A DNA stretch of 64,000 bases from a virus. A program made the position numbers and the translations under genes. Below, in pieces: positions 22,207 through 58,803 of this stretch. Each line of letters opens with the position of its first letter. Within the stretch, counting starts at the first letter, position 1. The DNA lies in IMG/VR virus record IMGVR_UViG_3300030380_006185, positions 64,001 through 128,000 of that record. One strand, written 5' to 3'. Under the pieces are notes generated by a model that was not told the origin of the DNA, did no database searches, and saw only the letters and a list, made by a program, of their open reading frames with translations.

Positions 22207-22212
22207 TTTTGA

Positions 22213-26062: not shown

Positions 26063-27375
26063 ACTTTTTTTAGTTTTGGTAATTGCAATTTTGGTAGTTC
26101 TGGTTTATCCTTTTTTATTTTTTTTAATTTAGGTAATTTTAATTCTACTTGTTTTGGGAATTCAGGTAATCTTTCTGTGAGTACTTTATCTATTTTTTCT
26201 TTCATTGCTTCAAATGAAAACTTTGATCTAGAATGAAAGCCTTGTCGTTTTGCTAAATCTTTATATCTTTTATAATTTGTAAAAATGTCTTTAAAATAGT
26301 GCCCTACTTGACCGGTATCAACATTAAACCATTGTGCTTCTTTTAATAACATATTGTTTGCTGCTGAAGGGTGAACTTCTTTTAAAGTTCCACTCATCAT
26401 TGTTGTAAAGTTAGGATTAAGATAATCTGTATGCCCACTCCAATTTGTTGTTAAAATTGGTTTGTTGGTTAAAGAAAATTCAAGTAGTGGTCTACCAAAT
26501 CCTTCACCTTTAGTTAAATTAACCATCGCTTTAACTTTTGAATGGTTGTATATCTCATTCATTTCCTCATCAGTAAACTCACCATGTAGTAAATATACAT
26601 TTGGTAAATTCTTTGATTTACAAGTAGCTTTAATTGCTTTAATTTTTTCAATTATAGTATCTCTATCCATATAAGAGGATCCAACTTGAGATGTTTTTAA
26701 AATAAGAGCAGGTTTCTTTGATTTATTTTTAAATGTTTCAAAAAACGCTTTTATCATTAACCCAACATTTTTTCTATCTTCACCTATATCTCCTTGAATC
26801 CAATGTCCTACAAACAAATATGCAAATGATTCTTTTACATTAGATAAATCAAATGTTGATTGTATTGGTTTATAAACATCTGTGTTTACTCCTTCAAACA
26901 TTATTTCACTTTCACCTTCCCATATAATATGCCCTACAGGTTGGTTTGTTTGTTTATCTCTTTTTTCAAATTTACTATTCTTTAAAACATCAATTGTATG
27001 TTTAGAAGAACCTAAAATTAAATCCATTCTTCTACAACCTTCAACCCATTCAGCAGGTGCTATAGTTGTTTCAATCCCTGCTGTAATTCCAATATTATAT
27101 TTACCTACTTTTTGAAATTCATTTGGAACTGTTATTTGTGCCCAAATCTCTGGTTGGGATGGTAATTGAGGGGTGGTTAATAAAAGTGGTTCTAGGAAAT
27201 CCCATTCAGGATTATTTTTAATAAAACCAAATGGGGTGTTTCCCCATCTTTGAGGTAGAATTTTTACATCATATTTTTCTAATTCTACAACTGCTTTAAC
27301 TATATCTCTTGATCTTGCTCCATATCCAGAGTAAGTATCAATAGGACAGCTTATTACAAATACTGGTTTGCTCAT
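26059..27375 (-). CDS. Glycosyltransferase family 4 (GT-B)
   Basis: SGYG, DRKN, GEGFGRPLLE, TNWSGH. Confidence 0.85.
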   Translation of the reverse strand: MSKPVFVISCPIDTYSGYGARSRDIVKAVVELEKYDVKILPQRWGNTPFGFIKNNPEWDFLEPLLLTTPQLPSQPEIWAQITVPNEFQKVGKYNIGITAGIETTIAPAEWVEGCRRMDLILGSSKHTIDVLKNSKFEKRDKQTNQPVGHIIWEGESEIMFEGVNTDVYKPIQSTFDLSNVKESFAYLFVGHWIQGDIGEDRKNVGLMIKAFFETFKNKSKKPALILKTSQVGSSYMDRDTIIEKIKAIKATCKSKNLPNVYLLHGEFTDEEMNEIYNHSKVKAMVNLTKGEGFGRPLLEFSLTNKPILTTNWSGHTDYLNPNFTTMMSGTLKEVHPSAANNMLLKEAQWFNVDTGQVGHYFKDIFTNYKRYKDLAKRQGFHSRSKFSFEAMKEKIDKVLTERLPEFPKQVELKLPKLKKIKKDKPELPKLQLPKLKKV

Positions 27376-27381
27376 AACTTT

Positions 27382-28821
27382 TTAGTATAATAATTCGTGA
27401 TTAATTGTATCTTCTTCAACTTCATTTACATTGATTAGCTCATATTTTTCGCGTGGAGTCCACGTGTTAAATAATTTATCTATCGCATTAATTGCGCGTT
27501 CTGCCATAGCTTCACTTGTAAGTCCTGCTTTTTCTACAGCCCACTCTCTACCTTCTTTACCTAAACGTTTTCTTTCATCTCTACCCATATAATATAAATT
27601 TTCAATTTGGATAGTTGCATCTTCAGGTTTGCACCTATCATCCCAAATATAAGGGGTTTTAGGAGAACCTTGTAAAGATCTATTTGTTGGGAATACTGGG
27701 AATGACCAACTTCCATGTTTTTGATATCTTCCAGTATGATTTGAAGGTATTTCAGGGGTTGGTTCATACCAATTCCCATCTTCATCTTCAAATCCCATTT
27801 GGTCTTGCATTCCACCAGTTACATTAGCTATAATTGGAGTACCTGCTAATATTGCTTCGGTTAATGTTAATCCCCAACCTTCATTTGAAGTTAATAATAT
27901 TTGAGCATCAGCTAAATTATACATAAAATTTAACTCTTTATTTCCTAACTTACTAGTAGAGAATAAAATTGCTTCAGGGTAATCTTTAAATAAAATTTTT
28001 CTTACTTCCTCAAGATTAGTTCCATGCTCACTTACTATTTCAGTATGGAGAATTAAAGAACACTTTTCTGCTTTTTCTTTAGGTAATTTATCTAAAAAGT
28101 ATCTAAACGCAAGCATTGTATCTGGGATTTGTTTTCTTCTAATGTTTCTTGAATTGAAAAATAAAACAAAATCTTTTTCTTTCCCACCAAAGATATGTGA
28201 TTTAAATTGTTCAAATTCTTTTAGATCAGATTCATTTTCAAGTGGGTAATAAATGTTATGATTTAAACCATGTGGAACATATTCTATTACTTTATTTTTT
28301 GCTTTATCTCCTAAAACAAGTTCATTTATAAGCTTTGTTTGTTTGGAAATAGCTAAAAGTGCATCACATGACTCGTAAAATGATTTATTATAAAGAGGAG
28401 TTGGATAATCATCCCAAATATTCAAATAAATAATTGGAACCTCTTGTCTAATTTCATTTTCCATAGCAAACAACCACTCAAAATATCTTGGATCAGTAAT
28501 AATCATTATAGCATCAGGCTTTTCAGTAGCCATTAATTGTCTAACTAAATTCCCATCTCCATAACCATCTACAGGATATAAAAATACTGAGGAATCTTCT
28601 ATTTCTGCATTTTTATTTGTATCGGAAGATAAATCAAATCTTTTACCTTTTTCAGGGTGTTTTATAGCTCCTGCTACATTAACCCAATTAAAGTGTTGGC
28701 AAGTATTAATTACCATTTCACGAGCAACTGTTGCTACTCCTGAGTGGACTCTAATATCATCGCAAATTAATAGGATTTTTTTTCTCTCATTTTGAGGGAG
28801 ATAACCAAATTTTTCTTTCAT
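27382..28821 (-). CDS. Glycosyltransferase family 4 (GT-B)
   Basis: HSGV, RNIRRK, NEGWGLTLTEAILAGTPII. Confidence 0.88.
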   Translation of the reverse strand: MKEKFGYLPQNERKKILLICDDIRVHSGVATVAREMVINTCQHFNWVNVAGAIKHPEKGKRFDLSSDTNKNAEIEDSSVFLYPVDGYGDGNLVRQLMATEKPDAIMIITDPRYFEWLFAMENEIRQEVPIIYLNIWDDYPTPLYNKSFYESCDALLAISKQTKLINELVLGDKAKNKVIEYVPHGLNHNIYYPLENESDLKEFEQFKSHIFGGKEKDFVLFFNSRNIRRKQIPDTMLAFRYFLDKLPKEKAEKCSLILHTEIVSEHGTNLEEVRKILFKDYPEAILFSTSKLGNKELNFMYNLADAQILLTSNEGWGLTLTEAILAGTPIIANVTGGMQDQMGFEDEDGNWYEPTPEIPSNHTGRYQKHGSWSFPVFPTNRSLQGSPKTPYIWDDRCKPEDATIQIENLYYMGRDERKRLGKEGREWAVEKAGLTSEAMAERAINAIDKLFNTWTPREKYELINVNEVEEDTINHELLY

Positions 28822-32705: not shown

Positions 32706-33614
32706 TTATTTAATTGTTTCTATTATTTTGGCTATTGCCGACATTATATTAATCTCTTTATCAATTCGGAAATTTGCTTGAAAAAGATGTTCATTTAGTA
32801 TTATAGTTACTGATCCTTCCTTATCTTTAGCATATACTGAAATATGTTCAAATAGTAAGCGGTATAGTTCTTCAAAATCTTTTACACCACTATCTGCTAT
32901 AATTTGTCTTATTTTAATCCAGTTTTTTGTTTGGGTAAGTTCTTTTAGTACTTCTTTAGTATAATTGTTTGAAGCTAAAACTGATTCATTTATTTTAAGT
33001 TTACCATCTTGGTTAGATAATTGGATTGTATTCAACATTTTTCTAACATCAGGATAGTTTTTATTTACTATAGTAGCTACTTCTTTAACATCATGTGAAA
33101 TACTTTCTTTTTCCATTACATCTGCTAAATGTTTTGCAATAACTGATTTTGATGGTGGAACAATTTTAAGTACTTGACAACGTGATTGTATTGGATCAAT
33201 AATTCTCTCAACAAAATTACACGTTAATATAAAGCGAGTTGAACGAGAAAATGTTTCAATTACGTTTCTAAGTGCTGCTTGTCCATTTATAGTAATAAAA
33301 TCTGCTTCATCTAAGATAACTACTTTTATACCATTCCAAGAAGCAGCAGAAGCGAATCCTTTTACTTTTTCTCTGATTGTATCAATTCCATTTTCATCAC
33401 TTGCGTTAATATAAAGATGGTCACAGTTTAGATTTTTAACTATAAGTTTAGCTAGTGTAGTTTTACCTGTTCCAGCAGGTCCATAGAATATAAAGTTTTG
33501 GATGTCGTTTTGGTCAAGATATTTTTGAATTGTCTCTTTGACTTGTTCATTTCCTACATAATCTTGTAAAACAGTAGGACGGTATTTTTCAACTAACAAA
33601 GTGTTGTCTTTCAT
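32706..33614 (-). CDS. Clamp-loader ATPase (RFC / T4 gp44-like)
   Basis: VEKYRP, GPAGTGKT, NASDENGID, ILDEAD, QSRC. Confidence 0.95.
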   Translation of the reverse strand: MKDNTLLVEKYRPTVLQDYVGNEQVKETIQKYLDQNDIQNFIFYGPAGTGKTTLAKLIVKNLNCDHLYINASDENGIDTIREKVKGFASAASWNGIKVVILDEADFITINGQAALRNVIETFSRSTRFILTCNFVERIIDPIQSRCQVLKIVPPSKSVIAKHLADVMEKESISHDVKEVATIVNKNYPDVRKMLNTIQLSNQDGKLKINESVLASNNYTKEVLKELTQTKNWIKIRQIIADSGVKDFEELYRLLFEHISVYAKDKEGSVTIILNEHLFQANFRIDKEINIMSAIAKIIETIK

Positions 33615-42443: not shown

Positions 42444-43376
42444 CTAACTAAAATTGAAAAACTTGTCTTTATATGGATTTAAATTTAATGACCAACCTAA
42501 ATCATCATAAAAACCCTCTAACTTATTTAGTAATATAGCATCAAATATTTTTTGTCTATCAGCATATTTTTCCATAAACTCCTCTATTTTAGGTGGTAAA
42601 TCAAAATCTAAAAACCCTAATGTATCTATCTGGTATGGGTTTGGTTTTAGGTAAATGAATTTAATTTTATCACCTTGTGCTATATAAGAATGTTTAGTGT
42701 TTAATTTCCAAAATCTAATTAAATCGTTATATACAGCAGCAGCTTTAGCACTTACAGGGGCACCTTTAATCATTTGGGTAAACATTTCACCTGCTTTAGG
42801 TTTACGACCCATATACTTGTTTAATGTTTTTACTCCTGTTGGGTTGCCTAATTTAACTAAAGGGATATCTCCATTTAAGATTTGGTTTTTGAATTCTTTA
42901 ACTTTTTGATCTACATCAGTTTGTGTAGAACCCTTCAAAACATCAATTAAAATATCTTTAAAAAACTTACCTAATACAGGTGGAAAATTTGCTTTTTTAA
43001 ACTCAAGACCTTTTATATCAAGTGACTCTTTTACTATACCTTCTTGTTTAGTAATCCATTGAGCATATCTTCTAGTTTTTCTAAAATAAGCTGATCTGAT
43101 TACACATTCAGTCTTCATTTCAAGTCTATGAGTAGGGACATTAAAACATTCTTTAGCTAGTGTATTATAAGAATCTGTGATAATATCTTGATATTTAAGG
43201 GCTACCTTTTCAAGTTTTTCATCCTTATCTTCATCAGACATTTTATCAAAATCAGGATAGAAGTGTTTTAGGATAGGTTCAGCATGAAAGTAGTTGCTAT
43301 CTGTGTCTACATAAGCACAGTAGTTTACATCACCTTCATCACAAATCATCCACGGTACGTCTTCTATATGCTTCAT
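42444..43376 (-). CDS. Family B DNA polymerase, C-terminal subunit (palm motif C and thumb)
   Basis: YVDTDS, RRYA, IKGLE; start MKHIED at 43376. Confidence 0.9.
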   Translation of the reverse strand: MKHIEDVPWMICDEGDVNYCAYVDTDSNYFHAEPILKHFYPDFDKMSDEDKDEKLEKVALKYQDIITDSYNTLAKECFNVPTHRLEMKTECVIRSAYFRKTRRYAQWITKQEGIVKESLDIKGLEFKKANFPPVLGKFFKDILIDVLKGSTQTDVDQKVKEFKNQILNGDIPLVKLGNPTGVKTLNKYMGRKPKAGEMFTQMIKGAPVSAKAAAVYNDLIRFWKLNTKHSYIAQGDKIKFIYLKPNPYQIDTLGFLDFDLPPKIEEFMEKYADRQKIFDAILLNKLEGFYDDLGWSLNLNPYKDKFFNFS

Positions 43377-43377
43377 T

Positions 43378-43641
43378 TTAAAATCTTTGATCAATTCCAG
43401 GTGCTACCATTTTACCACTTGGTTTTTCTCCTTTTGAGGTAAGCACTTCATGAGGTGGAACTACTTCTATTTTAACACCTTGTATTTTACATTTGCCTCC
43501 TTGTTTAAGGAATTTTTTAAATAATATTTCTTGTTTTTCTGTCCAAGATTCACTTCTTTTTATTATAGTTTGTTTATCTACTATAACATTATCAAATTTA
43601 ACTTGAACATTTTTTCTTATTGATTGTGGGGAAAGTGCCAT
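43378..43641 (-). CDS. 87-aa basic hypothetical protein between the PolB halves
   Basis: TAATG-coupled to PolB-N stop. Confidence 0.75.
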   Translation of the reverse strand: MALSPQSIRKNVQVKFDNVIVDKQTIIKRSESWTEKQEILFKKFLKQGGKCKIQGVKIEVVPPHEVLTSKGEKPSGKMVAPGIDQRF

Positions 43642-45416
43642 TATATTTCTGTTTTCATTAGTTTATTAATATGTCTATTTGCTGCTAAAGCTGATTCCTG
43701 AATGATTCTCCATCCACTTAATGTAATTGCTTCGCTCAATATTGCTTCATTCATCGCGTATCTAAATGTAGGTAAGGCAGTTGCACCATACAAACTATTC
43801 AGCAAAATTTTCATTGTATATTGCTTTAAATGAAACGAAGCACCTAATTCAGAATTACCTGATTTATATGCTTTTTTCATAGCATTTTTATATTTTACCC
43901 TTTCATCAAACCATTTATTCAAAATAATTGAAAGTACTGATTGTTTATCTGTTCTAAAAAATGTACCATTTGCAGAAACAGCCATTTCCATATCCTCAAT
44001 TAAGTTAATTAAATTACCTACTTCAATTTGAGTGCGTTTACCTTTAGCATTTTCAATAGTAAGTTCTTCTTGTGGGTCTTTTTTCTTTAAATCATTTAAA
44101 CCTAAATAGTTATTTCTAGAAGGGGAATAATATGTTGATTTTGTCTCCTTATCAGTAACCATATAAGGTCTATATTTTAGGTTTTCAGGTAAAGTTTGAC
44201 TTATAATTCTACCTACCATTGTTTCTTTACCTATATTTAAAGACATAATAATACAAGGATATAGTGAAGTTAAATCTTCATCAAACATATATTTGTATAC
44301 ACCTGCTTTAGGACAAAACAGATAACCACCTGCATATCCTTTTTTCTTTTTAGGGTTTGGTTCTTTTCTAGGTGGTATTATACCTTCAGATAATAGATAA
44401 GCTGAAATGGCTCCATCTTGTGTAACTGTATTGTGGTATACTTCTCCATAGTTGTGTTTTCCTTTATGGGATAAGTTTTTAGTTAATGCTAGATATTCTA
44501 ATTTTTTGTCTAATTCAACTAAAATTTCAACATCACGAAAGTTATATTCTATAAATGTTTCAATATCTTCTTCAAATAGTCTATCTAAAGAACCATTATA
44601 TTCTATTTTATTTAAACCAGCATACTTTTCACCTAATGCATCTAACTTCCAACTTGGTTCATCTTCCCAACTATATTTTTTATGTAAACGCATATAATCA
44701 AGTGACTCAACCCCCGCTATCTCTATTGGTTGGTTTGAATCATATATCTCATTTGTTTTAAAACTACGTTTTTCTTTTACTTTTAAAATAGGAGATAAAT
44801 ACTCAACCATTTCTTCACCTAGTACATTTTTAATTCTATAGTACAAGTAAGGAATATCAAAATAATCACTATTATAACCTACAAGGATATCTGGGTCTAG
44901 TTCTCTCATGTAAGTGAGGAATTTAGATAGTAATACTTCTTCATTGTAAACAGGGATTATTTCTTTATTCCCATTTACTGTTGGTTGGATTTGTTGTTTT
45001 GGATCAAGAATAATGATTTTCCATTCATCTTCTTGTTTAAAATACCAAGCAATTGAAGTAACCTTTTTAGGTGCAGATTGAATATATTCAGGAGTTAAAG
45101 CATCTCCCATTTCAATCTCAATATCAAAAAATATCTCTTTATGAGTAGTTGAAGGTTCATCATTAATTCCATACTTATCAATTAAGAAATTTTGATAAGG
45201 TGACATATCATGAAAATGAAGACCTGGTGTGTCTCTTTTCCATTTATATATCTTTTTTAATGGTTCACCATTTAGACCTTTGTACTTTGCTTCACTTTCA
45301 CTACATTCAACATAAGCAGGAGAGGACCATTCACTAGTTGAATAGCCCTCATCAGTCCATAGGTGGATTAAATATTTATTATAACTTTTATATTCAGCAA
45401 AACACTTTTTGTACAT
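43641..45416 (-). CDS. Family B DNA polymerase, N-terminal subunit (3'-5' exo, motifs A and B)
   Basis: FDIE, GYNSDYFD, YNFRD, YAGG, DLTSLYP, KILLNSLYG. Confidence 0.92.
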   Translation of the reverse strand: MYKKCFAEYKSYNKYLIHLWTDEGYSTSEWSSPAYVECSESEAKYKGLNGEPLKKIYKWKRDTPGLHFHDMSPYQNFLIDKYGINDEPSTTHKEIFFDIEIEMGDALTPEYIQSAPKKVTSIAWYFKQEDEWKIIILDPKQQIQPTVNGNKEIIPVYNEEVLLSKFLTYMRELDPDILVGYNSDYFDIPYLYYRIKNVLGEEMVEYLSPILKVKEKRSFKTNEIYDSNQPIEIAGVESLDYMRLHKKYSWEDEPSWKLDALGEKYAGLNKIEYNGSLDRLFEEDIETFIEYNFRDVEILVELDKKLEYLALTKNLSHKGKHNYGEVYHNTVTQDGAISAYLLSEGIIPPRKEPNPKKKKGYAGGYLFCPKAGVYKYMFDEDLTSLYPCIIMSLNIGKETMVGRIISQTLPENLKYRPYMVTDKETKSTYYSPSRNNYLGLNDLKKKDPQEELTIENAKGKRTQIEVGNLINLIEDMEMAVSANGTFFRTDKQSVLSIILNKWFDERVKYKNAMKKAYKSGNSELGASFHLKQYTMKILLNSLYGATALPTFRYAMNEAILSEAITLSGWRIIQESALAANRHINKLMKTEI

Positions 45417-45640
45417 ATTCTACTTACTTGAGGTAGATTTCTTTTTAGTAGTTGTTTTCTTTGTTGTTGATTTTGTATTTAAAGATGGTTCTTTAATCAA
45501 TTCAATTTCTTTATCTAAACTATCAACAATCCCTATTAAAGTACTATGTGGTATTCTAGATATTACAGTTCTTGGAATATTATTCAAATGTGTTCTTAAA
45601 CTATTTGATAGTTGTTTTAAATTTTCTTTATTCATTATTT

Positions 45641-46240
45641 TTATTTTTTTAAGTTTAAAAATTGTTTTAAATTTGGTCTAAAGTAGTTTATATTTTTCAT
45701 TACTTTTCTATCACGTGTTCTATAGACGATATAATAGTCTTCAACCTTTTCATAGTGACATGCTTCCTTTTGCTCTTCGGCACGTACTCTAACGGTCTCT
45801 TGTGCCTCTTCTTCACTAGAACAAGCTTTTGACATATTCGATGCTTGTACTTCTTGATACGCTGGCCATATTTGGTCTTTAAGACCATGTAACATAGTGC
45901 CGTTGCCCAGGGAAACGTAGGCAATGTCACATAAAGCATCAAGAACTTCAACAATGTTTCCTGTTTCACAGGCTTCTTTATATTCTTCGAGCTCTTCAAG
46001 GATGAAGTCATATACAAACTGCCATTCCTTTTTTTCTGGGATTGTAGGTTCATAGTTATTTGGTTTACCCATTGTGTGATTAAATTCTTCTACCTCACTT
46101 ACAAATGGTATATAATTTGGTTGTGGTTCTGGTTGTAAAGGATTTACTTCTTCTGTTAGTCTTTCATAGTACGGATTTAGTTCTCCGGTTTGGGGGTCGT
46201 GAGTAGGAATTAAATCTACTACATTTTTTCCTTTATTCAT
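45641..46240 (-). CDS. MazG-like / PRA-PH family nucleoside triphosphate pyrophosphohydrolase
   Basis: EELEEY...EVLDALCDIAYV, EVQASNMSK. Confidence 0.85.
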   Translation of the reverse strand: MNKGKNVVDLIPTHDPQTGELNPYYERLTEEVNPLQPEPQPNYIPFVSEVEEFNHTMGKPNNYEPTIPEKKEWQFVYDFILEELEEYKEACETGNIVEVLDALCDIAYVSLGNGTMLHGLKDQIWPAYQEVQASNMSKACSSEEEAQETVRVRAEEQKEACHYEKVEDYYIVYRTRDRKVMKNINYFRPNLKQFLNLKK

Positions 46241-46256
46241 AATTTTATATTTAGTT

Positions 46257-47342
46257 TTAAGAAATGTGAATTAAACTTGACCATAGCTCATGAGGTACAT
46301 CACTACTAAAGTTACTATCAGGAGCTAACATAACTGAAATAGCATCATGAGAATGGAGTGATTCTTGGTGTGAACATACCACTCTAAAATCTTTAATTCT
46401 TTTATCTTCTATTAATTGTTCATATAATAGTCTAGCAGCATCTTCAACAAATTTTAGATATGAACCATTTAGTTCTGCAAACGCCATTTCATCTTCTCGT
46501 TTAACCATTACTTGGGTTTCTGTTTGAAGTGCTTCAATACACATTTCTTGTAAGTCCTCAATCCAAACCATATCATCAAATTCTACAGATACTCTAGTTA
46601 CAGATCTTTGTGAATGGGATACTGTTGCTTTATTTCTATATTTTCTAGCAAACTCAGCTAATTCATAAGAGCAAGGACAAGCTGATGAGTATACAAAGTC
46701 AAAGTGAATAATTTTTCTTAGTTCACCTTGTTTATTTAAATCACCTTCTAAAGTAACATCATAATATTGATATCCAGCATTATCAGATCTTAGTGACTTT
46801 TGGATTATAGGGTATGAAAATTTAAGTGATATTTTAGAATCAAATGATTTCAATTTATCTTGGTAAGCAGACAAAACAGTTTCTAATTTATCTATACTAA
46901 AAGTATCATTTTTAAATTCATAAAATGATCTCATAATACGAGACATATTAATTCCTTTTTTATGAGCTTCAAGTGATACAGTTCCTGTTACTTTAGTTTC
47001 TAATTCTAAAATACCATTATCTCTTGTTTTATATTTTAAAGGTAATCTAAAGTTATGAATTCCAACTTGTTGAATCTCAACAGGAGAACCTTGAATAAGT
47101 GAAGAAGGGCCATTCTGTAAATCTGGGAATGTTTCAATATCTTCTTTAGTAGGGCTATAATCTACATCATATTCTCTATTAGGTTCATCATATTTAATTG
47201 AGTAATCATTTTCAGGGGGAGATTTATAAGATTTAACGTCTCCTACCCATTCATACTTTTTAATAAATTTCTTTTTTGTTTTGTTTTTTAACATATAATC
47301 TATTTTTAATGTAAATATAAAAAATTTTTTAGTTTTTTCCAA
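46257..47342 (-). CDS. folE2: GTP cyclohydrolase IB (true start probably slightly downstream)
   Basis: PDLQN, IQQVGI, KGINMSR, SACPCS, HSQRS, KREDE, FVEDAAR, ESLHSH. Confidence 0.93.
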   Translation of the reverse strand: MEKTKKFFIFTLKIDYMLKNKTKKKFIKKYEWVGDVKSYKSPPENDYSIKYDEPNREYDVDYSPTKEDIETFPDLQNGPSSLIQGSPVEIQQVGIHNFRLPLKYKTRDNGILELETKVTGTVSLEAHKKGINMSRIMRSFYEFKNDTFSIDKLETVLSAYQDKLKSFDSKISLKFSYPIIQKSLRSDNAGYQYYDVTLEGDLNKQGELRKIIHFDFVYSSACPCSYELAEFARKYRNKATVSHSQRSVTRVSVEFDDMVWIEDLQEMCIEALQTETQVMVKREDEMAFAELNGSYLKFVEDAARLLYEQLIEDKRIKDFRVVCSHQESLHSHDAISVMLAPDSNFSSDVPHELWSSLIHIS

Positions 47343-47757
47343 CCATTACTTTATAATCTTGTATAGGTTTTGAATCTTTATTTTCCCAAGGATAAACAAT
47401 CCAATCATTACTTTCAAATTTACAAGCATAGTAACGAGGTTCATACTTTGAAGTATGAGGTTTGTAATGGAGAACAGCAGTGTAATATTCATACAAATTT
47501 TGGAGAGTTTCTCCACTATCACAAATATCATCTACAAATAATGTTTCATTATGAGGATGTCTTTCAGATAAAGAATGATAAGGTATTCTCATTTTATGAG
47601 ATAACATAATAGCAGGAGTAAGCCCTCCTCTAGGTATTCCACATATATGAGTAAATTCTTTACCTGATTCTAAAATGTTTTTATGTAAGGTATCAACTAG
47701 TTCTTCTACCTCTTTCCAACTTATGTATATTTTTTTTATTTTATCTTTTTCCACCAT
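47329..47757 (-). CDS. Purine phosphoribosyltransferase (Gpt-like, type I PRT)
   Basis: GIPRGG, LFVDDICDSGET, WIVYPWE. Confidence 0.9.
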   Translation of the reverse strand: MVEKDKIKKIYISWKEVEELVDTLHKNILESGKEFTHICGIPRGGLTPAIMLSHKMRIPYHSLSERHPHNETLFVDDICDSGETLQNLYEYYTAVLHYKPHTSKYEPRYYACKFESNDWIVYPWENKDSKPIQDYKVMVGKN

Positions 47758-48124
47758 AATATTTTATTCCGTGACCTTCAGCTATTAATACTTCTTGTAA
47801 TGTAGGAGAAGGGGGTTCATGTTTAAGTGATTGATCTTTATAAAAATCTATTAATTGAATTTCTCCTAAACATCTACCAAATTTACCTACTCCAAAAGAT
47901 CTTAAAATAAACCTATTTTCATTTTTTTTCAAAATTTCTATAACTCTATTTTTTGCAGCTAAACCTTTTTTCTTTTCTTCTAAATCTCTTGTACGGGATT
48001 CAGGGGCATCCATACCATGTAATCTAATTCTTATTTTTTTAAAAGTACTAAACCCTAAATCTACCATAGCGTCAATAGTATCACCATCAACTACTTTTAT
48101 TACTGTTGCATTATACTCAAACAT
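47741..48124 (-). CDS. Thermonuclease (SNase-like)
   Basis: VVDGDT, IRLHGMDAPE, KFGRCLG. Confidence 0.9.
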   Translation of the reverse strand: MFEYNATVIKVVDGDTIDAMVDLGFSTFKKIRIRLHGMDAPESRTRDLEEKKKGLAAKNRVIEILKKNENRFILRSFGVGKFGRCLGEIQLIDFYKDQSLKHEPPSPTLQEVLIAEGHGIKYYGGKR

Positions 48125-48135
48125 GCCTTATATTT

Positions 48136-48921
48136 TTACACTCCTCTTTCTGTGTCAAATGCTATTATATGGTCTCTACCTGTTAAATTATAGCCATATT
48201 CAGCACATAAATCAAATACTAAAGGATACATTTTAATTAATTCTTTTCTTGTATCACCCGCAGGCATTATAAATGTTTTATGTTTTGGTATTTCCATTTT
48301 AATTCTAAAGTCCTCTATTTCTTTTAAACACTCATCAGTACCATCCCAAACTGGTTTATAATGATAATCAGTGTGGTAGTCTAATGTTTTTCTAATAGCA
48401 CTATAATTTAGTCTTAATTTATTATGTTGCTTAATCATTCTTTCATCTGTTTCTTTTCCATTAGGTGTTAAAGCACCTAATTTAGGAACAGAATTAGAAA
48501 ATTTAGGAGATAGAGAAATCAAACCTAATGGAAAATCAGTTTTAAGAAAATGAGAACCTTCAGTTTCAATAGTAATAAGAATGCCTCTTTGATTTGCAAA
48601 ATGAGTTAACTCATTTACTAATTTAGGATGCATTGTAGGAGAACCACCTGTTAACATCATTTCTTTTACATGGGGGTTTTCATCATATATTTTAATAATA
48701 TCATTAAAATTAAATGTTCCTTTTTCTGGGTGGATGCTTGTGTACCAAGAATCACACCACCCTCCTTCTTCTCCAAAGTAACACCTGTGAGTGCACCCAG
48801 TTGTTCTAACTGCAATGGTAGGTCTTCCAAATCGGCTACCTTCAGATTGAACACACCTATATAATTCTAGTATAGGTAATCTTTTATCAAAATCTTTTAT
48901 TCTTCCTAATGGTTTTTCCAT
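48136..48921 (-). CDS. queE: 7-carboxy-7-deazaguanine synthase (radical SAM)
   Basis: VQSEG...VRTTGC-x3-C...WCDS, LTGGSP, IETEG, LSPK. Confidence 0.92.
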   Translation of the reverse strand: MEKPLGRIKDFDKRLPILELYRCVQSEGSRFGRPTIAVRTTGCTHRCYFGEEGGWCDSWYTSIHPEKGTFNFNDIIKIYDENPHVKEMMLTGGSPTMHPKLVNELTHFANQRGILITIETEGSHFLKTDFPLGLISLSPKFSNSVPKLGALTPNGKETDERMIKQHNKLRLNYSAIRKTLDYHTDYHYKPVWDGTDECLKEIEDFRIKMEIPKHKTFIMPAGDTRKELIKMYPLVFDLCAEYGYNLTGRDHIIAFDTERGV

Positions 48922-48983
48922 ACTATTTTATTAAAATATATTTAATTTTTATGTTGTTATAAGTAACTGTTGATATCCAATAA

Positions 48984-49445
48984 TTATTCTCCATAAATTG
49001 CTGTATTTTTTCCATGTTCCATAAATTCAACTTGTACTACTCTTACTCGTCCATCTGTTTCTTCCTCAACAAACATATTAAGTTTATTGTAGATATACTC
49101 AGCAAATTTTTCTGCACCAGTAGCATCTATTACTCTTAATTGGATTAAATTTTGTGCATCCATCATTCTAAATGAATCCAATTCGGGGTCGTCGTTTGCA
49201 GCAATTAATGTGTGATCAAACATGTAATCCATCCAGTCTTTAGGGGACATACCATCTATTTGGGTTTTAGCTCGTTTCATTCCTCCAAAGTCCCAAACCC
49301 AATTTCTATGGTCAAGTAACCCTTCAAAAGTTACTTTAAATGATACTCCATACCCATGTAAATAACTACAATGTGTTTCTTTTGCTCTCCATTGACGGAA
49401 TACTGTACTAAATCCGTCAAATATTTTAGTTGATTGATGTTTCAT
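48984..49445 (-). CDS. queD: 6-carboxy-5,6,7,8-tetrahydropterin synthase
   Basis: HCSYLHGY, WDFG, FDHT, GAEKFA. Confidence 0.9.
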   Translation of the reverse strand: MKHQSTKIFDGFSTVFRQWRAKETHCSYLHGYGVSFKVTFEGLLDHRNWVWDFGGMKRAKTQIDGMSPKDWMDYMFDHTLIAANDDPELDSFRMMDAQNLIQLRVIDATGAEKFAEYIYNKLNMFVEEETDGRVRVVQVEFMEHGKNTAIYGE

Positions 49446-50311
49446 TATTTTATATTTAATTGTTCTTTTTCATACTCTGAAAGTACTTGTTCAACATATA
49501 TTCTTGCTGTTTCCCATTTTACAGGGCCTGTTTCATCAGCATATCTTACAGGATCAGGTCTTCCCAATTTAATAAATGCTTCTACTCGTTCAACTGAACT
49601 AGCTGATTTGTAATCTGAAAACCAATTATCACCTGAAGTAGATATAATTTGGATTGGTTTGTAACTTGTATTTGTACGAGAATAAACTTCATCAAAATCA
49701 AAACCTAAATATTTACATAGTTTTTCTCCATCTTGTAAGATAGTAAATTTATCACCTTCAAGATAAGGTGTAAAGTAACCTACTTTATCAGCATCCCAAT
49801 TGCCTATTCTAAAAGCTGCATCGTCTGCATCTCTAAACTCTTGTCTGCAATCTGGGTAAATAGCATGATCACCTGCATGGATACCAAGTGCAATATCACA
49901 ACCTTCACCTGTTTGGTTTGCTCTAGATAATGCTACTGCTTGTGTAATAGAGGCAAATATTTTATTTCTATTAGGTACAACAGTTGCTTTCATATTATCT
50001 TCAGCATAATGACCTTCGGGTACTTCATCTCCACCATCCACTAAAGCAGAATCAAGTAAATCAACTAAACCATCTAGCTTAATTACTCTATATTTAACAC
50101 CAGGATGTGAATCCCCATGTACTCCAATATTAATCATTACCTCATTATTAATATAATCTACTAATGATTGAGCGCGTTCTAACTCAACTCTATGTTTTTG
50201 TCCATAATCAAATGAAATAGCTGTTACCGTGTCATATTCTTTAAGACAACGTAACAACAATGTACTGGAATCCATTCCTCCAGATAGGGAAACTACAACA
50301 TGTTTTTCCAT
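49445..50311 (-). CDS. queC: 7-cyano-7-deazaguanine synthase
   Basis: SGGMDS, FDYGQKH, VPNRN, YPDCR. Confidence 0.93.
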   Translation of the reverse strand: MEKHVVVSLSGGMDSSTLLLRCLKEYDTVTAISFDYGQKHRVELERAQSLVDYINNEVMINIGVHGDSHPGVKYRVIKLDGLVDLLDSALVDGGDEVPEGHYAEDNMKATVVPNRNKIFASITQAVALSRANQTGEGCDIALGIHAGDHAIYPDCRQEFRDADDAAFRIGNWDADKVGYFTPYLEGDKFTILQDGEKLCKYLGFDFDEVYSRTNTSYKPIQIISTSGDNWFSDYKSASSVERVEAFIKLGRPDPVRYADETGPVKWETARIYVEQVLSEYEKEQLNIK

Positions 50312-50567: not shown

Positions 50568-50730
50568 CTTCTATGTTTTTTATTTTTTTAATAATAAACT
50601 CAGATGATATAAGTTCTCTTACCCATCCTTCAATACCATTAAACCCATTTTTAATAATGTCATTACATATATTTTTAGTATAGTTAATAACTAATTCTTC
50701 AAATTCTTTTCTTGAAATTTCTTTACTCAT
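50560..50730 (-). CDS. Cassette micro-ORF, 56 aa
   Basis: MSKEISRKEF...KNIEDE*. Confidence 0.65.
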   Translation of the reverse strand: MSKEISRKEFEELVINYTKNICNDIIKNGFNGIEGWVRELISSEFIIKKIKNIEDE

Positions 50731-50742
50731 TTTTGTTTTGGT

Positions 50743-51039
50743 TTATACAATTTGTGCAATCAATTCATCCTTATTAGTAAAGACATCTTCTTGACTATAC
50801 CAATCGTATGAACTTTGGGTACTTTTTGTATGTGGATGTATGAAATCTCTTTTTGTTTCTATAAGATAATCTATTTCAATACCCGACATTTCAGTAAAAG
50901 TTCCATCTAAATTACCCTTAGTATAAGGTTGTTGTTCGGTAACTCTAATCTTGTCTATCCTATTTTTACTTATCTTTTTATCTCTTAATACATAGACATC
51001 TTGCCCTACTTCATACTTTACATTATATTGTTTACTCAT
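50743..51039 (-). CDS. Cassette ORF, 98 aa
   Basis: MSKQYNVKYEVGQDVY. Confidence 0.75.
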   Translation of the reverse strand: MSKQYNVKYEVGQDVYVLRDKKISKNRIDKIRVTEQQPYTKGNLDGTFTEMSGIEIDYLIETKRDFIHPHTKSTQSSYDWYSQEDVFTNKDELIAQIV

Positions 51040-51233
51040 CTTTGTTTTGGTTTTAAGTATTCTTCAATATCTCTTGACATCTCATCAAAGGTTATCCCTT
51101 GTGTGTCTGCCATATCTTGAATCTGTTTATCAGTAAGTACTAAAAAGTTAGCCTTAGGTTTTCTGTTCTTATGAATTTCATTAGCTTCCTTTAGTAACTT
51201 ACTGACTAATTTCTTATCTTCTTCTTTACTCAT
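51036..51233 (-). CDS. Cassette ORF, 65 aa
   Basis: MSKEE...KPKQR*. Confidence 0.7.
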   Translation of the reverse strand: MSKEEDKKLVSKLLKEANEIHKNRKPKANFLVLTDKQIQDMADTQGITFDEMSRDIEEYLKPKQR

Positions 51234-51487
51234 CTTTGTTTTGGTTTATTTATAAGTAACTTTGTTAATTCTTCTTCAACATCAGGATGATAATATACAT
51301 CAAGTCCATTCCACCAACTAACAAAAGATTCTTCACCCATTCGTTTCTTTAATTGTTTCTTCTTCTTTCTGGGTAATCTACCGTACCATTCTTTATTATT
51401 TTCACAAACTTTCCATTCATGTTGTAATGGTATCACCTCACCCTTAACCTCAATGGTTTCTAACTGTATGTTAATCTCTTTACTCAT
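51230..51487 (-). CDS. Cassette ORF, 85 aa
   Basis: MSKEI...KPKQR*. Confidence 0.7.
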   Translation of the reverse strand: MSKEINIQLETIEVKGEVIPLQHEWKVCENNKEWYGRLPRKKKKQLKKRMGEESFVSWWNGLDVYYHPDVEEELTKLLINKPKQR

Positions 51488-51632
51488 CTTTGTTTTGGTT
51501 TAAGTATTCTTGAAAATTTATTGTTCTATCAACTTCTTTTAGTGTTTCTTCCACCACCATTTTTAGTGTTTCATCTTCAGATTCAACCACCCATCCCTTT
51601 TTATGAACCCATTTGTAATTTACTTCTTTCAT
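51480..51632 (-). CDS. Cassette micro-ORF, 50 aa
   Basis: MKEVNYKW...LNQNKDE*. Confidence 0.65.
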   Translation of the reverse strand: MKEVNYKWVHKKGWVVESEDETLKMVVEETLKEVDRTINFQEYLNQNKDE

Positions 51633-51790
51633 CTTTGTTTTGGTTTAAGTGTTCTGATAGATTTAGGGATATAGGGTAATATTTTAACCTTACCGCCATA
51701 CTCTTCTTTAATGGACTTTATTATAGTTTCTTTCATTTCTTTAGTATACGAACTAAAATCTTCTGGTGTATGTACTGTTATTTTACTCAT
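51629..51790 (-). CDS. Cassette micro-ORF, 53 aa
   Basis: MSKITVHTPE...LKPKQR*. Confidence 0.65.
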   Translation of the reverse strand: MSKITVHTPEDFSSYTKEMKETIIKSIKEEYGGKVKILPYIPKSIRTLKPKQR

Positions 51791-51802
51791 CTTTGTTTGG
51801 GT

Positions 51803-51931
51803 TTATCTAGTTTCATAATAACCTTTGCCTTTGTAATTCACATTTTTGTCTTTTCCAATGTAAAACAAGAACCATATAATGGTAATAATAAAAACCAATT
51901 TAAGTATTAATCCAATATCAATTCTTCTCAT
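51803..51931 (-). CDS. Cassette micro-ORF, 42 aa, single TM
   Basis: MRRIDIGLILKLVFIITIIWFLFY...ETR*. Confidence 0.6.
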   Translation of the reverse strand: MRRIDIGLILKLVFIITIIWFLFYIGKDKNVNYKGKGYYETR

Positions 51932-52124
51932 CTTTGTTTTGGTTTTTAATATTCAACACCCATTCCAGTAAATCAACCATACTACATTGTGTTTCGAATT
52001 GATGATGTTTTTCAGATATGCCCCACAAACCCCCATTTGGTGGATTATTTAAGAAATGAGATAATTCATCTTTATGTTTATTCATTTCTATTAATTTTTC
52101 ATATATTTCTTCTCTACTTCTCAT
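51918..52124 (-). CDS. Cassette ORF, 68 aa
   Basis: MRSREEI...NQNKDEKN*. Confidence 0.7.
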   Translation of the reverse strand: MRSREEIYEKLIEMNKHKDELSHFLNNPPNGGLWGISEKHHQFETQCSMVDLLEWVLNIKNQNKDEKN

Positions 52125-52366
52125 CTTCTTTGTTTTTGTTTAGTATCAATAATATGCTCACCATCACCTAGATGTAATGTTTCCATATGGATTTTAGCTG
52201 AATAAAGGTAATCCTTTTTCCATCCAAAAATATCATCGGTCTGATAACCGTTTCCCATCAAGTATCTTTCAGCATGTAGTTTAGTTTCAAAATACATATA
52301 AGACTTAGTATTATACTTACCATCATATTGATTGAAGTTTATAATTGCTATTGTTTTGTTACTCAT
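52121..52366 (-). CDS. Cassette ORF, 81 aa
   Basis: MSNKT...KQKQRR*. Confidence 0.7.
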   Translation of the reverse strand: MSNKTIAIINFNQYDGKYNTKSYMYFETKLHAERYLMGNGYQTDDIFGWKKDYLYSAKIHMETLHLGDGEHIIDTKQKQRR

Positions 52367-52378
52367 CTTTGTTTTAGT

Positions 52379-52495
52379 TTATAATTTAGTTATTGAATAT
52401 AATAAAATACTTATGACAATTCCTATAAAAATACCAATAGTAATTCCTTTTGATAAAGCCCAGTTCATATCTCTAACGTAATCTTCGTGTCTCAT
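52379..52495 (-). CDS. Cassette micro-ORF, 38 aa, single TM
   Basis: MRHEDYVRDMNWALSKGITIGIFIGIVISILLYSITKL*. Confidence 0.6.
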   Translation of the reverse strand: MRHEDYVRDMNWALSKGITIGIFIGIVISILLYSITKL

Positions 52496-52998
52496 CTTCT
52501 TTGTTTTGGTGGTCTACCTCTTCTTTCTATTGATCTACCAGAGCGATCAAATGTTTTTAAACAATACATATAAAATTCTTCTGTTGTACCATCAAAATTT
52601 ATAATATGCTCTTCATACTCATCTTTTGTCATAACAAATTCTCGTAAAAAACCTTTTTGTAGTGCTTCTAATTTAGCAGTTTCATCTTTTTCAAAATCTT
52701 CAATTAATCGTTTTCTTCGAGCTAAATCGACTTGGTTTGATTCAATTAATCTTTGATGATCATTACCATAAGATTTAAATACTTCATTAAGTTCTATCTC
52801 AGTTAATTTCCACTGCCAGTAATAATGTGAAAATTCATATTCACCGTTTTTAATACGATCTAAAAATGTTGATTTTTTTGGTAATGGTGGGGTTTTTGTT
52901 GTATATCGTCTCCACCAAAAGAATTGATTATAATTTAAGGGTTGTAACTGTTTTATTTTTTGTTTTACAGTTTTTTCATCAGACGTATTGTATAACAT
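52492..52998 (-). CDS. Hypothetical protein heading the cassette array
   Basis: 168 aa, ends RRGRPPKQRR* in the first junction repeat. Confidence 0.75.
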   Translation of the reverse strand: MLYNTSDEKTVKQKIKQLQPLNYNQFFWWRRYTTKTPPLPKKSTFLDRIKNGEYEFSHYYWQWKLTEIELNEVFKSYGNDHQRLIESNQVDLARRKRLIEDFEKDETAKLEALQKGFLREFVMTKDEYEEHIINFDGTTEEFYMYCLKTFDRSGRSIERRGRPPKQRR

Positions 52999-56098: not shown

Positions 56099-57808
56099 TT
56101 AACCGTCACAACTTACACAATCTGCAATTCTTGATCCTAAATCTCCTTTAATTACTGAGTCTGTTCTTAGGTAATAAAGGGTTTTTATTCCTAATTTCCA
56201 TGCTTCTATATGAACTTGATTTATCCATCTAGGTGAGTCAGTTGGTGAAAAACATAAATTAAGAGATTGAGTTTGATCTATATATTTTTGTCTAATAGCA
56301 GCTTGCTGAACTAAACCTAATTGATTAATTTCTGCAAAAGTTAAAAATACTTCTTTATCATCTTCATTTAATACTTCACTTGGTAAATTTTGAACAGACC
56401 CATCATCTGCTAAAATTTGATCCCATACTTTATCTATATCATGACCTTTTTCTCTTAGAAGATTTTGTAAATCTGGATTTTTAACAATAAATGTGCCTTT
56501 AGCACCATTAAATGTGTACATATTAGCAGGATAAGGCTCAATACCAGCTGAGCAGTTGCTAATTCTAGAATTGGAGACAGTAGGGGCAATAGCTAAAACA
56601 TGAGTATTTCTCATTCCAGTACCTTTACACCATAAAGGTTCACCGTATTCTTGGGCTAATTGTCTACTTGCTGCTTCTGCTTTAAGTTTTATATTACTAA
56701 AAATGGTGTGTGTCCAAGCTGTAGAAGCAATTGAATTAAAAGGTAAATTTTTCTTTTGTAAAAAGGTATGCCAACCCATTACTCCTAAACCTAATGCTCT
56801 GCCTTTTGAAGCATGTCTATGTGTACGCTTCATAGATTCTTGTCCACTAGTTTTATCTATAAATTCTTGCATTACACCATCTAAAAAGTAAACAGCAGTT
56901 TCAACTACATCAGTATCTTTCCATTCATCGTATTTAGCTAAATTTAATGAAGATAAACAACATATAAATGAATGCTCTTCGTCTGTGTGTAGTGTTATTT
57001 CAGAACAAATATTAGTCATAGACACGTTTAAATTATTCATTAAATATGCCATAGGATTATCTTTATTAATGTTATCTTCAAACATTATATAAGGTTCACC
57101 TGTTTCAACCCGTGACTTTAAAATTTCTAACCATAAATCCATTGCTTCTTGATCTCGATCATTTAATTTTCTCATAAAGGTATCATCAACAACTACACAT
57201 TGGTGTAAATTTAAACACTGTCTATTTGGGTCACCTTTAGGTCTACGAATTTGTAAAAATTCTTTAATATCTGGGTGGTTAATATTTAGATTAACAGATG
57301 CTGCTCCTCTTCTTACTGATCCTTGGTTGGTTGCTATAATGGTTGAATCATAAATTTTAGCCCAAGGTACTACACCTTCACTTTTACCATTTCCTCTAAT
57401 TGAAGCACCTCTTCCTCTAATTTTAGATAAAGAAATACCAACACCCCCACCATAAGAAGTTAATCTCATTAGTTCAGCATTTGTTAAACCAATACCTCTA
57501 ACTGAGTCAGGAGTATCAATTCCAAAACATGAGATAGGTAAACCTCTATCTGTTCCAGTATTTGATAAGACAGGGGAAGCTAAACCAATCCACCCATTCC
57601 AAATATATTTAAAAAACTTTCCTGCTAAATCAGGTCGTTCTAATCTATCAGCAACTGCATTAGCTACTCTTCTATATGCTTTTTTAGGTGTTTCACCTGG
57701 GAGGAGATATCCCTTTGAGATTGTAGACAAAGCTACTTCATCTAAAAATTCAGGGTAATCTTTACCTTTTTCCCATTGTGTATAATCTGCAATTAAATTG
57801 TTATCCAT
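56099..57808 (-). CDS. nrdA: Ribonucleotide reductase class Ia alpha subunit (no ATP cone)
   Basis: ISCF, QGSVRRGA, TNICSEI, APTVS, KTLYY, C-terminal CVSC. Confidence 0.95.
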   Translation of the reverse strand: MDNNLIADYTQWEKGKDYPEFLDEVALSTISKGYLLPGETPKKAYRRVANAVADRLERPDLAGKFFKYIWNGWIGLASPVLSNTGTDRGLPISCFGIDTPDSVRGIGLTNAELMRLTSYGGGVGISLSKIRGRGASIRGNGKSEGVVPWAKIYDSTIIATNQGSVRRGAASVNLNINHPDIKEFLQIRRPKGDPNRQCLNLHQCVVVDDTFMRKLNDRDQEAMDLWLEILKSRVETGEPYIMFEDNINKDNPMAYLMNNLNVSMTNICSEITLHTDEEHSFICCLSSLNLAKYDEWKDTDVVETAVYFLDGVMQEFIDKTSGQESMKRTHRHASKGRALGLGVMGWHTFLQKKNLPFNSIASTAWTHTIFSNIKLKAEAASRQLAQEYGEPLWCKGTGMRNTHVLAIAPTVSNSRISNCSAGIEPYPANMYTFNGAKGTFIVKNPDLQNLLREKGHDIDKVWDQILADDGSVQNLPSEVLNEDDKEVFLTFAEINQLGLVQQAAIRQKYIDQTQSLNLCFSPTDSPRWINQVHIEAWKLGIKTLYYLRTDSVIKGDLGSRIADCVSCDG

Positions 57809-57813
57809 AACTT

Positions 57814-58803
57814 TTAAAATATTGAAGTGGAATCCCACTCTAAGTGTCCTTTACTATAATTTGTTACTCTATTAGCAAAAAAGTCTGTATGTTGCTTTCC
57901 AGCACTTAATGAATCAAACCATTTCATGTTTTTAACTGAAGTCATATCAACATCTAATATAATGGGTCTATATCCTAAGTCTGATAGTTTTGTATTGACT
58001 CTATTTTTAATAAAATTTTGTAGGTCATATTTTGAACATCCTTCAAGATCACCTAATTCATAAACTTTATCTATAAAATCTAATTCAAGTTGAAGAGAAA
58101 GTAATGCAGCTTCATTAATTGATGCTTCTAATTCAGGTGTTTTTAAATGTGGGTTTTCTTCTAATAATGTTCTAAATAACCAACACCCTGCTTCTGAGTG
58201 CATTGATTCATCTCTAATACTCCATTCAACAATTTGTCCTACACCTTTTAATTTGTTTCTCATTTTAAATGAAAGTAAAACAGCAAATGAAGAAAATAAA
58301 TTTACACCTTCTGTAAATGCAGAAAATACAGCTAACGATTTAGCTCTTTCATGCCAATCTACTTCTCCATTAAATGAATCTCTAACATCCATTAATGTTT
58401 CTATTTTAGCCATTGTGGTTTCATCTTCTAAAAATTCACTAAAATCATCTAATCCTAATTCTTCATTCAATAAAGAATAAGCTTCAGCGTGAATAGTTTC
58501 CATAGCACCAAAAGTTGTGGCCATTGCTATAATTTCAGGTTTTCTAAACCATTTTGTAACTAATCCTGTCCAATAATCATTTACAACGGTTTCAGTTTGT
58601 GCAAACCCTTTTAAAATTGAACCTATTATATTTTTTTCAGTTTCTGTAAGATTTTGTTTCCAGTCATTTACATCTGACATCATAGGTACTTCTGTGTGTA
58701 TCCAATGAGCTTGTTGTTGTTTTAGCCAATAGTCAAAGGCTTGGGGGTATTCAAAAGGTTTATAGACTATTCTTTCTTGTAGTAAGTTTGTTTTTTTAGA
58801 CAT
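57814..58803 (-). CDS. nrdB: Ribonucleotide reductase class Ia beta subunit
   Basis: ETIHAEAY, EGVNLFSSF, DESMH, DFFANRVTNY. Confidence 0.95.
   Translation of the reverse strand: MSKKTNLLQERIVYKPFEYPQAFDYWLKQQQAHWIHTEVPMMSDVNDWKQNLTETEKNIIGSILKGFAQTETVVNDYWTGLVTKWFRKPEIIAMATTFGAMETIHAEAYSLLNEELGLDDFSEFLEDETTMAKIETLMDVRDSFNGEVDWHERAKSLAVFSAFTEGVNLFSSFAVLLSFKMRNKLKGVGQIVEWSIRDESMHSEAGCWLFRTLLEENPHLKTPELEASINEAALLSLQLELDFIDKVYELGDLEGCSKYDLQNFIKNRVNTKLSDLGYRPIILDVDMTSVKNMKWFDSLSAGKQHTDFFANRVTNYSKGHLEWDSTSIF

Follow-up and report, generated by a model that had tools for sequence, protein, structure and literature searches.

An optional nuclease-phosphoribosyltransferase cassette in a DpdA3-type 7-deazaguanine gene cluster of a phage related to Flavobacterium phage immuto

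Introduction

Complete replacement of guanine (G) by 7-deazaguanine in phages is an unsolved problem, and the key papers on it (PMC6884629, PMC10516641) leave a nucleoside triphosphatase (NTPase) unexplained. How such a base might reach the DNA is the question raised by a 64,000-nucleotide viral sequence, here called the window, which spans bases 64001-128000 of the 156,273-bp IMG/VR record IMGVR_UViG_3300030380_006185, itself estimated to be 96% complete. A single run of genes in the window joins predicted enzymes for the synthesis of a 7-deazaguanine (QueC, QueD, QueE and FolE2) to an SNase-like nuclease, a purine phosphoribosyltransferase (PRT), a MazG-like enzyme and a family-B DNA polymerase (PolB). 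A preliminary description of the window read this run as a possible nucleotide-pool route in which the PRT could make a ribonucleotide of the 7-deazaguanine preQ0, and gave as an alternative that the PRT only salvages guanine released by a DpdA enzyme. We examined the run, its neighborhood and its relatives in other viruses; new here are a natural pair of genomes with and without the PRT, and the substitution of the PRT by an Hpt-type enzyme.

The SNase and PRT genes form a facultative cassette

Gene calls in the cluster were made by Pfam and NCBIfam profile searches and by PHROG matches. These searches bore out the gene order of the preliminary description, with all genes on the minus strand: QueC, QueD, QueE, SNase-like nuclease, PRT, FolE2, MazG-like enzyme, a 71-aa open reading frame (ORF) and PolB (Table 1). 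A family-B polymerase is indeed present at the end of the run, but its gene is split rather than single. For comparison we assembled 80 viral loci encoding a DpdA3 protein at least 59% identical to that of the window (see below), and genes were counted in the 41 loci that have at least 7 kb of downstream sequence. QueC, QueD and QueE were found in all 41, FolE in 37 (with FolE2 in one further locus), the MazG-like gene in 35, PolB in 33 and the Gpt-like PRT in 29. The SNase gene was present in 11 of the 41 and is thus not a conserved part of the module. In eight loci the PRT was missing from a contiguous string of DpdA3, QueCDE and FolE, in some cases extended by MazG or PolB.

The closest relative, G009, is a 155,669-bp genome (96% complete) that is circularly permuted with respect to the one studied here. 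Its DpdA3 protein is 95% identical to that of the window, nucleotide identity across the cluster is 85-93%, and the architecture is alike, including FolE2 and the split PolB, with QueE followed directly by FolE2. The two sequences are separated by a clean 770-bp indel that corresponds exactly to the SNase and PRT genes and is the only stretch within the QueC-to-PolB run that does not align with G009. A six-frame search of the whole G009 genome (hmmsearch --max) found neither a PRT (best E 3.7) nor an SNase. At the indel junction G009 has no clean direct repeat; about 12 nt there resemble the start of the SNase gene, a hint, short of proof, that G009 underwent a deletion. Between the two genomes 35 segments of at least 400 bp fail to align, the cassette among them, and the genomes are therefore mosaics of small cassettes. 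A stretch of micro-ORFs between QueC and orf168 likewise fails to align with G009.

Two further relatives carry a different enzyme. G010, a complete genome with terminal repeats, has no Gpt-like PRT by the same six-frame search and encodes an Hpt-type hypoxanthine-guanine PRT (HGPRT) far from the cluster. In locus L181 an Hpt-type HGPRT lies immediately upstream of FolE, the place that the Gpt-like gene occupies elsewhere. The SNase and PRT genes are thus a facultative two-gene cassette between QueE and FolE2. Absent from G009 and from the eight contiguous clusters, the PRT does not appear indispensable for the product of the pathway. An optional PRT, with two guanine-PRT families occurring at one place, fits an enzyme of ordinary guanine phosphoribosylation, and the same optional presence and Hpt-type substitution fit poorly with a sole entrance to a pool of modified nucleotides.

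A DpdA3 homolog lies upstream of the run

A homolog of DpdA3, which the preliminary description had not reported, is encoded 2.7 kb upstream of the QueCDE run. Besides DpdA3 of Flavobacterium phage immuto it matches the homologs of phages CP220 and phiST, and because it is present the system is, by sequence, a member of the published DpdA3 7-deazaguanine modification systems of these three phages. DpdA3 was defined by Hutinet, Cui et al. 2023 (PMC10516641), who report that essentially all G is replaced in immuto (by fdPreQ1), phiST (dDG) and CP220 (dADG). The link first drawn between this gene content and a 7-deazaguanine genome was right, and relatives with the module replace 100% of G (PMC10516641).

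The Pfam tRNA-guanine transglycosylase (TGT) profile (PF01702) had no match to the DpdA3 homolog at E<=1, and DUF6610 matched weakly. An AlphaFold (AF2) model of the protein (pLDDT 88.5) was matched by Foldseek at probability 1.0 to Z. mobilis TGT, to ArcTGT and to 7ui4, the structure of the DNA preQ0 insertase DpdA, with TMq values of 0.54-0.64. Judged from this model, the DpdA3 homolog has the TIM-barrel fold of TGT and DpdA. It is a minimal barrel that lacks the C-terminal Zn-binding subdomain, with no Cys/His cluster in its 264 residues. An alignment of eight diverse DpdA3 members shows three invariant aspartates that may be catalytic: D55 (in MDNS), D86 (PD) and D208 (DTS). The protein is acidic (pI 5.5), as are DpdA3 proteins in general (median pI 5.4). 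The basic protein orf168 adjoins DpdA3 in 21 of the 41 related loci; it had no match in Pfam or PHROG, and an Atlas search returned unnamed clusters only, at 0.76. It could be a candidate partner protein of the acidic DpdA3.

The PRT is of a canonical 6-oxopurine type

The PRT carries an RGG pyrophosphate loop, the phosphoribosyl pyrophosphate (PRPP) motif VDDICDSGET (DDxxD[ST]G) and the sequence WIVYPW, corresponding to the base-stacking motif W-I-x-x-P-W. It has an Asp and a Lys that align with D92 and K115 of E. coli Gpt, and the Asp that contacts N7 in xanthine-guanine PRT (XGPRT) and HGPRT is conserved. The structures closest to its AlphaFold model (pLDDT 87.7) are Sulfolobus hypoxanthine-guanine-xanthine PRT (HGXPRT) and adenine PRT (APRT), P. 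horikoshii 1vdm and E. coli XGPRT. By the sequence and fold criteria applied, the PRT is a canonical 6-oxopurine enzyme. It shares with E. coli Gpt and the archaeal HGXPRTs the fold, the RGG loop, the DDxxD[ST]G motif, the Lys and the Trp-Ile base-binding motif, and differs from them by a deletion of about 20 residues in a loop and by a Cys before the third Asp. The loop-less form occurs throughout the immuto-like clade. Base-contact residues are constant across QueC-type, DpdL-type and ribonucleotide reductase (RNR)-adjacent clusters and do not track the end product. Ca. Actinomarina and several archaea encode stand-alone PRTs on their chromosomes that also bear the VDDICDS signature, and no que gene lies within 8 kb of them. 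A PRT tree of 61 rows was poorly resolved, with phage and metagenome-assembled rows intermixed, and supports no claim of a clade.

A deazapurine substrate is compatible with canonical motifs, as the precedent of TubE shows. In the Streptomyces tubercidin and toyocamycin clusters, the PRTs TubE and ToyH are likewise encoded with FolE, QueD and QueE homologs (PMC6112128). TubE was aligned by its authors with the Sulfolobus GpT-2 structure 4Z1O, which is also a top Protein Data Bank (PDB) match of the window PRT. TubE is a 194-aa protein with proven use of 7-carboxy-7-deazaguanine (CDG), whereas the window PRT has 142 aa, lacks the loop and is optional.

The PRT is linked to que genes across phages

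The preliminary description had suggested co-occurrence of the PRT with que genes as a check, and the linkage proved strong. Among 51 IMG/VR loci with a relative of the PRT, in about 40 the gene is part of a FolE/QueE/QueD(/QueC) cluster or adjoins one, within 10 kb; in most of the remainder it stands next to RNR, and in this RNR-adjacent type a QueD homolog was found elsewhere in both of the two near-complete genomes. The PRT was found in 25 of 50,697 phage records; at least 24 of the 25 show que or GTP-cyclohydrolase genes there or close by, and records of Escherichia phages gave no match. All three phages known for 100% G replacement carry a PRT homolog. On this gene linkage, the PRT belongs to the pathway in phages. 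Neither of the two key deazaguanine papers (PMC6884629, PMC10516641) mentions a phosphoribosyltransferase, our literature search found no published explanation of, or link between, the PRT and phage deazaguanines, and in a jumbo-phage review PRTs come up solely in connection with NAD and Ter systems.

In 42-kb siphophages of Pseudomonas, Stenotrophomonas and Variovorax, FolE (GTP cyclohydrolase I) carries a PRT domain fused at its N-terminal end. The fusion in the Stenotrophomonas record is directly upstream of a gene annotated as queuine tRNA-ribosyltransferase. In Pseudomonas phage PP992516 the matching gene is unannotated and was missed by quick PF01702 and DpdA3-profile searches; after this case negatives from quick searches were not trusted, and G009 and G010 were re-checked by the six-frame search given above. 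Wherever the sequence extended far enough for a search, a DpdA family gene turned up.

It is conceivable that the SNase and PRT genes are a generic nucleotide-scavenging cassette with no tie to deazaguanine, placed here by mosaic insertion, as the many unaligned segments relative to G009 would allow. MazG homologs of this type also occur in phage groups outside our DpdA3 and PRT search results. We consider this very unlikely, as the PRT family occurs in phages almost only with que genes, usually abutting FolE or QueE, and PRT-FolE fusions exist.

The pool route of the preliminary description has the PRT couple preQ0 or CDG to PRPP; kinases and RNR would then carry the product to a deoxynucleoside triphosphate (dNTP), the MazG-like enzyme would remove dGTP and PolB would incorporate the modified nucleotide. 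The TubE precedent (PMC6112128) and a PRT homolog in all three fully G-replaced phages argue for it, yet G009, and eight of 41 clusters, keep DpdA3, QueCDE, FolE, MazG and PolB while lacking the PRT, and an Hpt-type HGPRT can take its place. The clustering of PRT, MazG, RNR and PolB and the tight linkage of PRT to que genes would also suit this route, as would a second-hand report of an ADG nucleoside in infected cells. However, a DpdA family gene accompanied the PRT wherever the sequence sufficed, the Asp contacting N7 is conserved, and the pocket residues are independent of the end product. The presence of DpdA3, the facultative nature of the cassette, the canonical PRT residues and the Hpt-type substitute thus weaken a PRT-driven preQ0 nucleotide route, and as the core mechanism we consider it unlikely. 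The other suggestion, salvage of DpdA-released guanine, is the better fit to the facultative cassette, the canonical residues and the Hpt-type substitution.

Predicted synthesis and identity of the base

FolE2, QueD, QueE and QueC are all encoded, so that the pathway from GTP to a 7-deazaguanine is complete, with FolE2 standing in for FolE. QueC scored 124 bits against TIGR00364, below the cut-off of 150, and matches the Pfam QueC PP-loop ATPase family. In the alignment its C-terminal Zn-binding Cys cluster is replaced, a loss common to the QueC proteins of this clade. The 76%-identical QueC of immuto functions in a phage whose modified base derives from preQ1 (PMC10516641). Searches of the whole 156,273-bp genome with immuto proteins (tblastn) found no QueF, DpdN, FolE-IA or ThyA; the absence of QueF first noted for the window thus holds for the genome. 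Because QueC is present and QueF, DpdN and DpdL are absent from the genome, the DNA base is predicted to be dPreQ0 or its amide.

FolE2 instead of FolE had been remarked on before, and the relatives show an in-place displacement: FolE2 occupies the exact position of FolE-IA. We saw it only in a sub-lineage comprising the window, G009 and L197, and in one jumbo-phage contig. Its true start is probably an internal ATG at 47294, since this corresponds to the start in a relative. With its Zn-less QueC, its zinc-independent FolE2 and a DpdA3 that lacks the TGT Zn subdomain, the pathway may be present here in a low-zinc version.

The MazG-like enzyme, the polymerase and a kinase-like gene

The MazG-like gene is directly upstream of PolB, and its product is 76-77% identical to the immuto homolog. 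It is the most conserved accessory gene of the related loci, usually abutting PolB. The protein had no sequence match in the PDB. The phiST cluster encodes an all-alpha NTPase unrelated to that of the window. The split PolB consists of a 591-aa N part and a 316-aa C part, separated by about 250 bp with an 87-aa ORF; in a relative with an unsplit PolB of 909 aa, the parts line up in order with residues 43-609 and 624-909. The split is common to G009 and several relatives, and an intact PolB of about 900 aa is found in L006 and L185.

An AAA_28-type P-loop kinase-like protein is common to this phage, immuto and CP220 (29-32% identity). Its gene adjoins DpdA3 in CP220, where the other neighbor of DpdA3 is an HD-phosphohydrolase/P-loop fusion gene; in immuto it lies two genes away, annotated "thymidylate kinase", beside DpdN. 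Neither in this genome nor in the 79 close relatives does it neighbor DpdA3. Streptomyces phages account for most of the other phage homologs, and the one Streptomyces phage region examined around a homolog had no que genes. Separately, a weak thymidylate-kinase match at window 33348-33482 was rejected as a clamp-loader AAA+ protein.

In known pre-replicative replacement, T4 uses a dCTPase, a dCMP hydroxymethylase and a dNMP kinase, and S-2L uses PurZ, MazZ and DatZ. The window phage resembles both in having an all-alpha NTP pyrophosphohydrolase beside a replicative polymerase, and its relatives replace one base completely. It differs in that its only candidate base-transfer enzymes are the TGT-fold protein and the optional PRT.

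By analogy with the T4 order of enzymes, DpdA3 might swap the base on free deoxynucleosides or deoxynucleotides, the MazG-like enzyme (or the HD enzyme in CP220) converting dGTP to dGMP or dG, and the P-loop kinase together with host kinases rebuilding dNTP for PolB; the PRT would then merely recycle the released guanine, which would explain why it is optional. The conserved adjacency of MazG and PolB is consistent with this, as is the kinase-like gene found near DpdA3 in CP220 and immuto with a homolog in this genome, but that gene is not adjacent to DpdA3 in the close relatives or here and its homologs are mostly in Streptomyces phages, the one region examined being without que genes. The minimal acidic barrel (264 aa, median pI 5.4, no Zn subdomain) and the HD-phosphohydrolase/P-loop gene flanking DpdA3 in CP220 point the same way, although overall charge is weak evidence and we know of no TGT-fold enzyme that acts on free nucleotides. 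Such a use of DpdA3 seems to us distinctly unlikely.

Comparison with published DpdA3 systems

The cluster resembles that of immuto in its homologous DpdA3, QueC, QueD, QueE, PRT and MazG-like proteins and in a polymerase followed by GroES/GroEL. It differs in lacking QueF and DpdN, with preQ0 predicted rather than formyl-preQ1; in having FolE2 rather than FolE, a split PolB rather than an annotated PolA, and an inserted SNase; and in that its kinase-like gene lies outside the cluster. Likeness to phiST and CP220 consists of a DpdA3 member, the CDG pathway and a genomic PRT homolog, with an all-alpha NTPase beside the cluster in phiST. Both of these phages lack QueC, and phiST has DpdL. Their PRT genes are placed differently, that of phiST beside RNR and that of CP220 beside a radical-SAM gene, and identities to the window proteins are low (DpdA3 21-34%, PRT 22-32%).

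Genomic context and host

By sequence the phage is a relative of immuto: in addition to the values in Table 1, amino acid identities are 77% for the MazG-like protein, 57% for GroEL and 52% for the PRT. Megablast of the region against phage records gave no match. Long ORFs are all on the minus strand in the fully listed region at 38-56 kb. Upstream of the cluster are genes for a class I RNR, DnaB, a 5'-3' exonuclease, a RecA/UvsX-like protein and a gp32-like protein, and downstream are Hsp20, GroES and GroEL. The sequence points to a Bacteroidota host, because the window has an ORF with a CHU_C type IX secretion sorting domain, a low G+C content (29.8%) and kinship with a Flavobacterium phage. 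GC skew is negative over the entire plus strand (to -0.42) and the genes are on the minus strand; the coding strand is therefore rich in G and poor in C, and G is the base that this phage is predicted to modify. Four glycosyltransferase genes (GT1 and GT2 families) and a methyltransferase gene form one block elsewhere in the window.

Table 1. Predicted genes of the cluster and other features, with positions in the window unless another record is named
Feature	Position	Strand	Evidence or remark
Split PolB	42444-45416	-	Pfam; N part 43641-45416, 87-aa ORF 43378-43641, C part 42444-43394
71-aa ORF	45420-45635	-	no family match (Pfam, NCBIfam, PHROG)
MazG-like all-alpha NTP pyrophosphohydrolase	45641-46240	-	Pfam PRA-PH 4e-10; PHROG 671 2.5e-28
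FolE2 (GTP cyclohydrolase IB)	46257-47342	-	NF010200 271 bits (equivalog cut-off 215)
Gpt-like 6-oxopurine PRT, 142 aa	47329-47757	-	Pribosyltran 7e-8; XPRT NF006613 5e-12
SNase-like nuclease, 127 aa	47741-48124	-	Pfam 2.6e-4; PHROG 452 endonuclease 1e-28
Indel relative to G009 (SNase and PRT)	47359-48128		770 bp
QueE (radical-SAM CDG synthase)	48136-48921	-	TIGR03365 2e-13; immuto 66%
QueD (6-carboxytetrahydropterin synthase)	48984-49445	-	Pfam PTPS 2e-14; immuto 69%
QueC, 288 aa	49445-50311	-	Pfam QueC E 7e-36; immuto 76%
Micro-ORF stretch	50579-52499		unaligned with G009
orf168, 168 aa, basic	52492-52998	-	pI 9.2; frequent neighbor of DpdA3
DpdA3-type transglycosylase homolog, 264 aa	53046-53840	-	immuto DpdA3 36%, E 5e-51; PHROG 19058 4e-34
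Class I RNR	56099-58803	-	alpha 56099-57838, Pfam 1e-105; beta 57814-58803, Pfam 6.5e-65
ORF with CHU_C domain	12738-13511
Glycosyltransferase and methyltransferase block	20962-28821
AAA_28 kinase-like	own genome 20516-21046 (outside window; L245:4517-5047); L244:9494-10036; L001:15618-16142
PRT-FolE fusions	L056:7019-7912; L141:35672-36565
Hpt-type HGPRT	G010:142169-142675; L181:15701-16213

Discussion

The explanation we judge best, and toward which we lean with modest confidence, is a DpdA3-type module accompanied by a guanine-salvage cassette. FolE2, QueD, QueE and the Zn-less QueC would make preQ0 from GTP, and the TGT-fold DpdA3 homolog would insert it in place of guanine; in the studied relatives about 100% of G is replaced. 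The PRT most likely recycles ordinary guanine: as judged from its sequence it would act on guanine (or hypoxanthine or xanthine) set free by the exchange or by breakdown of nucleic acid, with the nuclease perhaps helping, and its product GMP would return by way of GTP to FolE2. Each modified position would otherwise cost one dGTP and one GTP, so that recycling would halve the guanine cost. The PRT would also remove free guanine, a potential competitor of the deazaguanine in the exchange. Gene identities, folds, synteny and the occurrence of the cassette are observed directly. We infer these points on cost and competition from TGT chemistry, and we likewise infer the substrates, which base is modified and how much of it, and any role of the MazG-like NTPase.

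Several considerations weigh against a DpdA3 module with guanine salvage. To our knowledge, every other complete base replacement in phages is pre-replicative. This model gives no explanation for the NTPase that lies beside the polymerase in phiST and in 35 of 41 relatives. Host PRTs could cover for the PRT missing from G009, and a shared intermediate such as CDG would equally explain the constant base-contact residues. The PRT lacks the flexible catalytic loop and is about 20 residues shorter than 1vdm and Gpt, and TubE, an archaeal-GpT-like PRT, uses CDG in vitro (PMC6112128). DpdA3 activity has never been shown, and heterologous reconstitution failed (PMC10516641). Finally, a nucleoside form of ADG has been reported, here at second hand, from CP220-infected cells.

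Taking the pool-based possibilities together, full replacement of G might proceed through the PRT, with host PRTs acting where it is absent, or through DpdA3 acting on dG, dGMP or dGTP. In either case the MazG-like enzyme would supply or exclude the guanine nucleotide, the P-loop kinase would rebuild the triphosphate and PolB would incorporate it. We consider this unlikely.

For a DpdA3-type module with salvage, the predicted combination of DpdA3, plain preQ0, zinc-independent FolE2 and Zn-less QueC slightly widens the known range of these systems. The window and its near-twin G009 form a natural with/without pair that marks the PRT as an accessory rather than the entry step. With the PRT as an accessory, the question of how these phages come to replace all of their G is narrowed to DpdA3 and the MazG-like enzyme.

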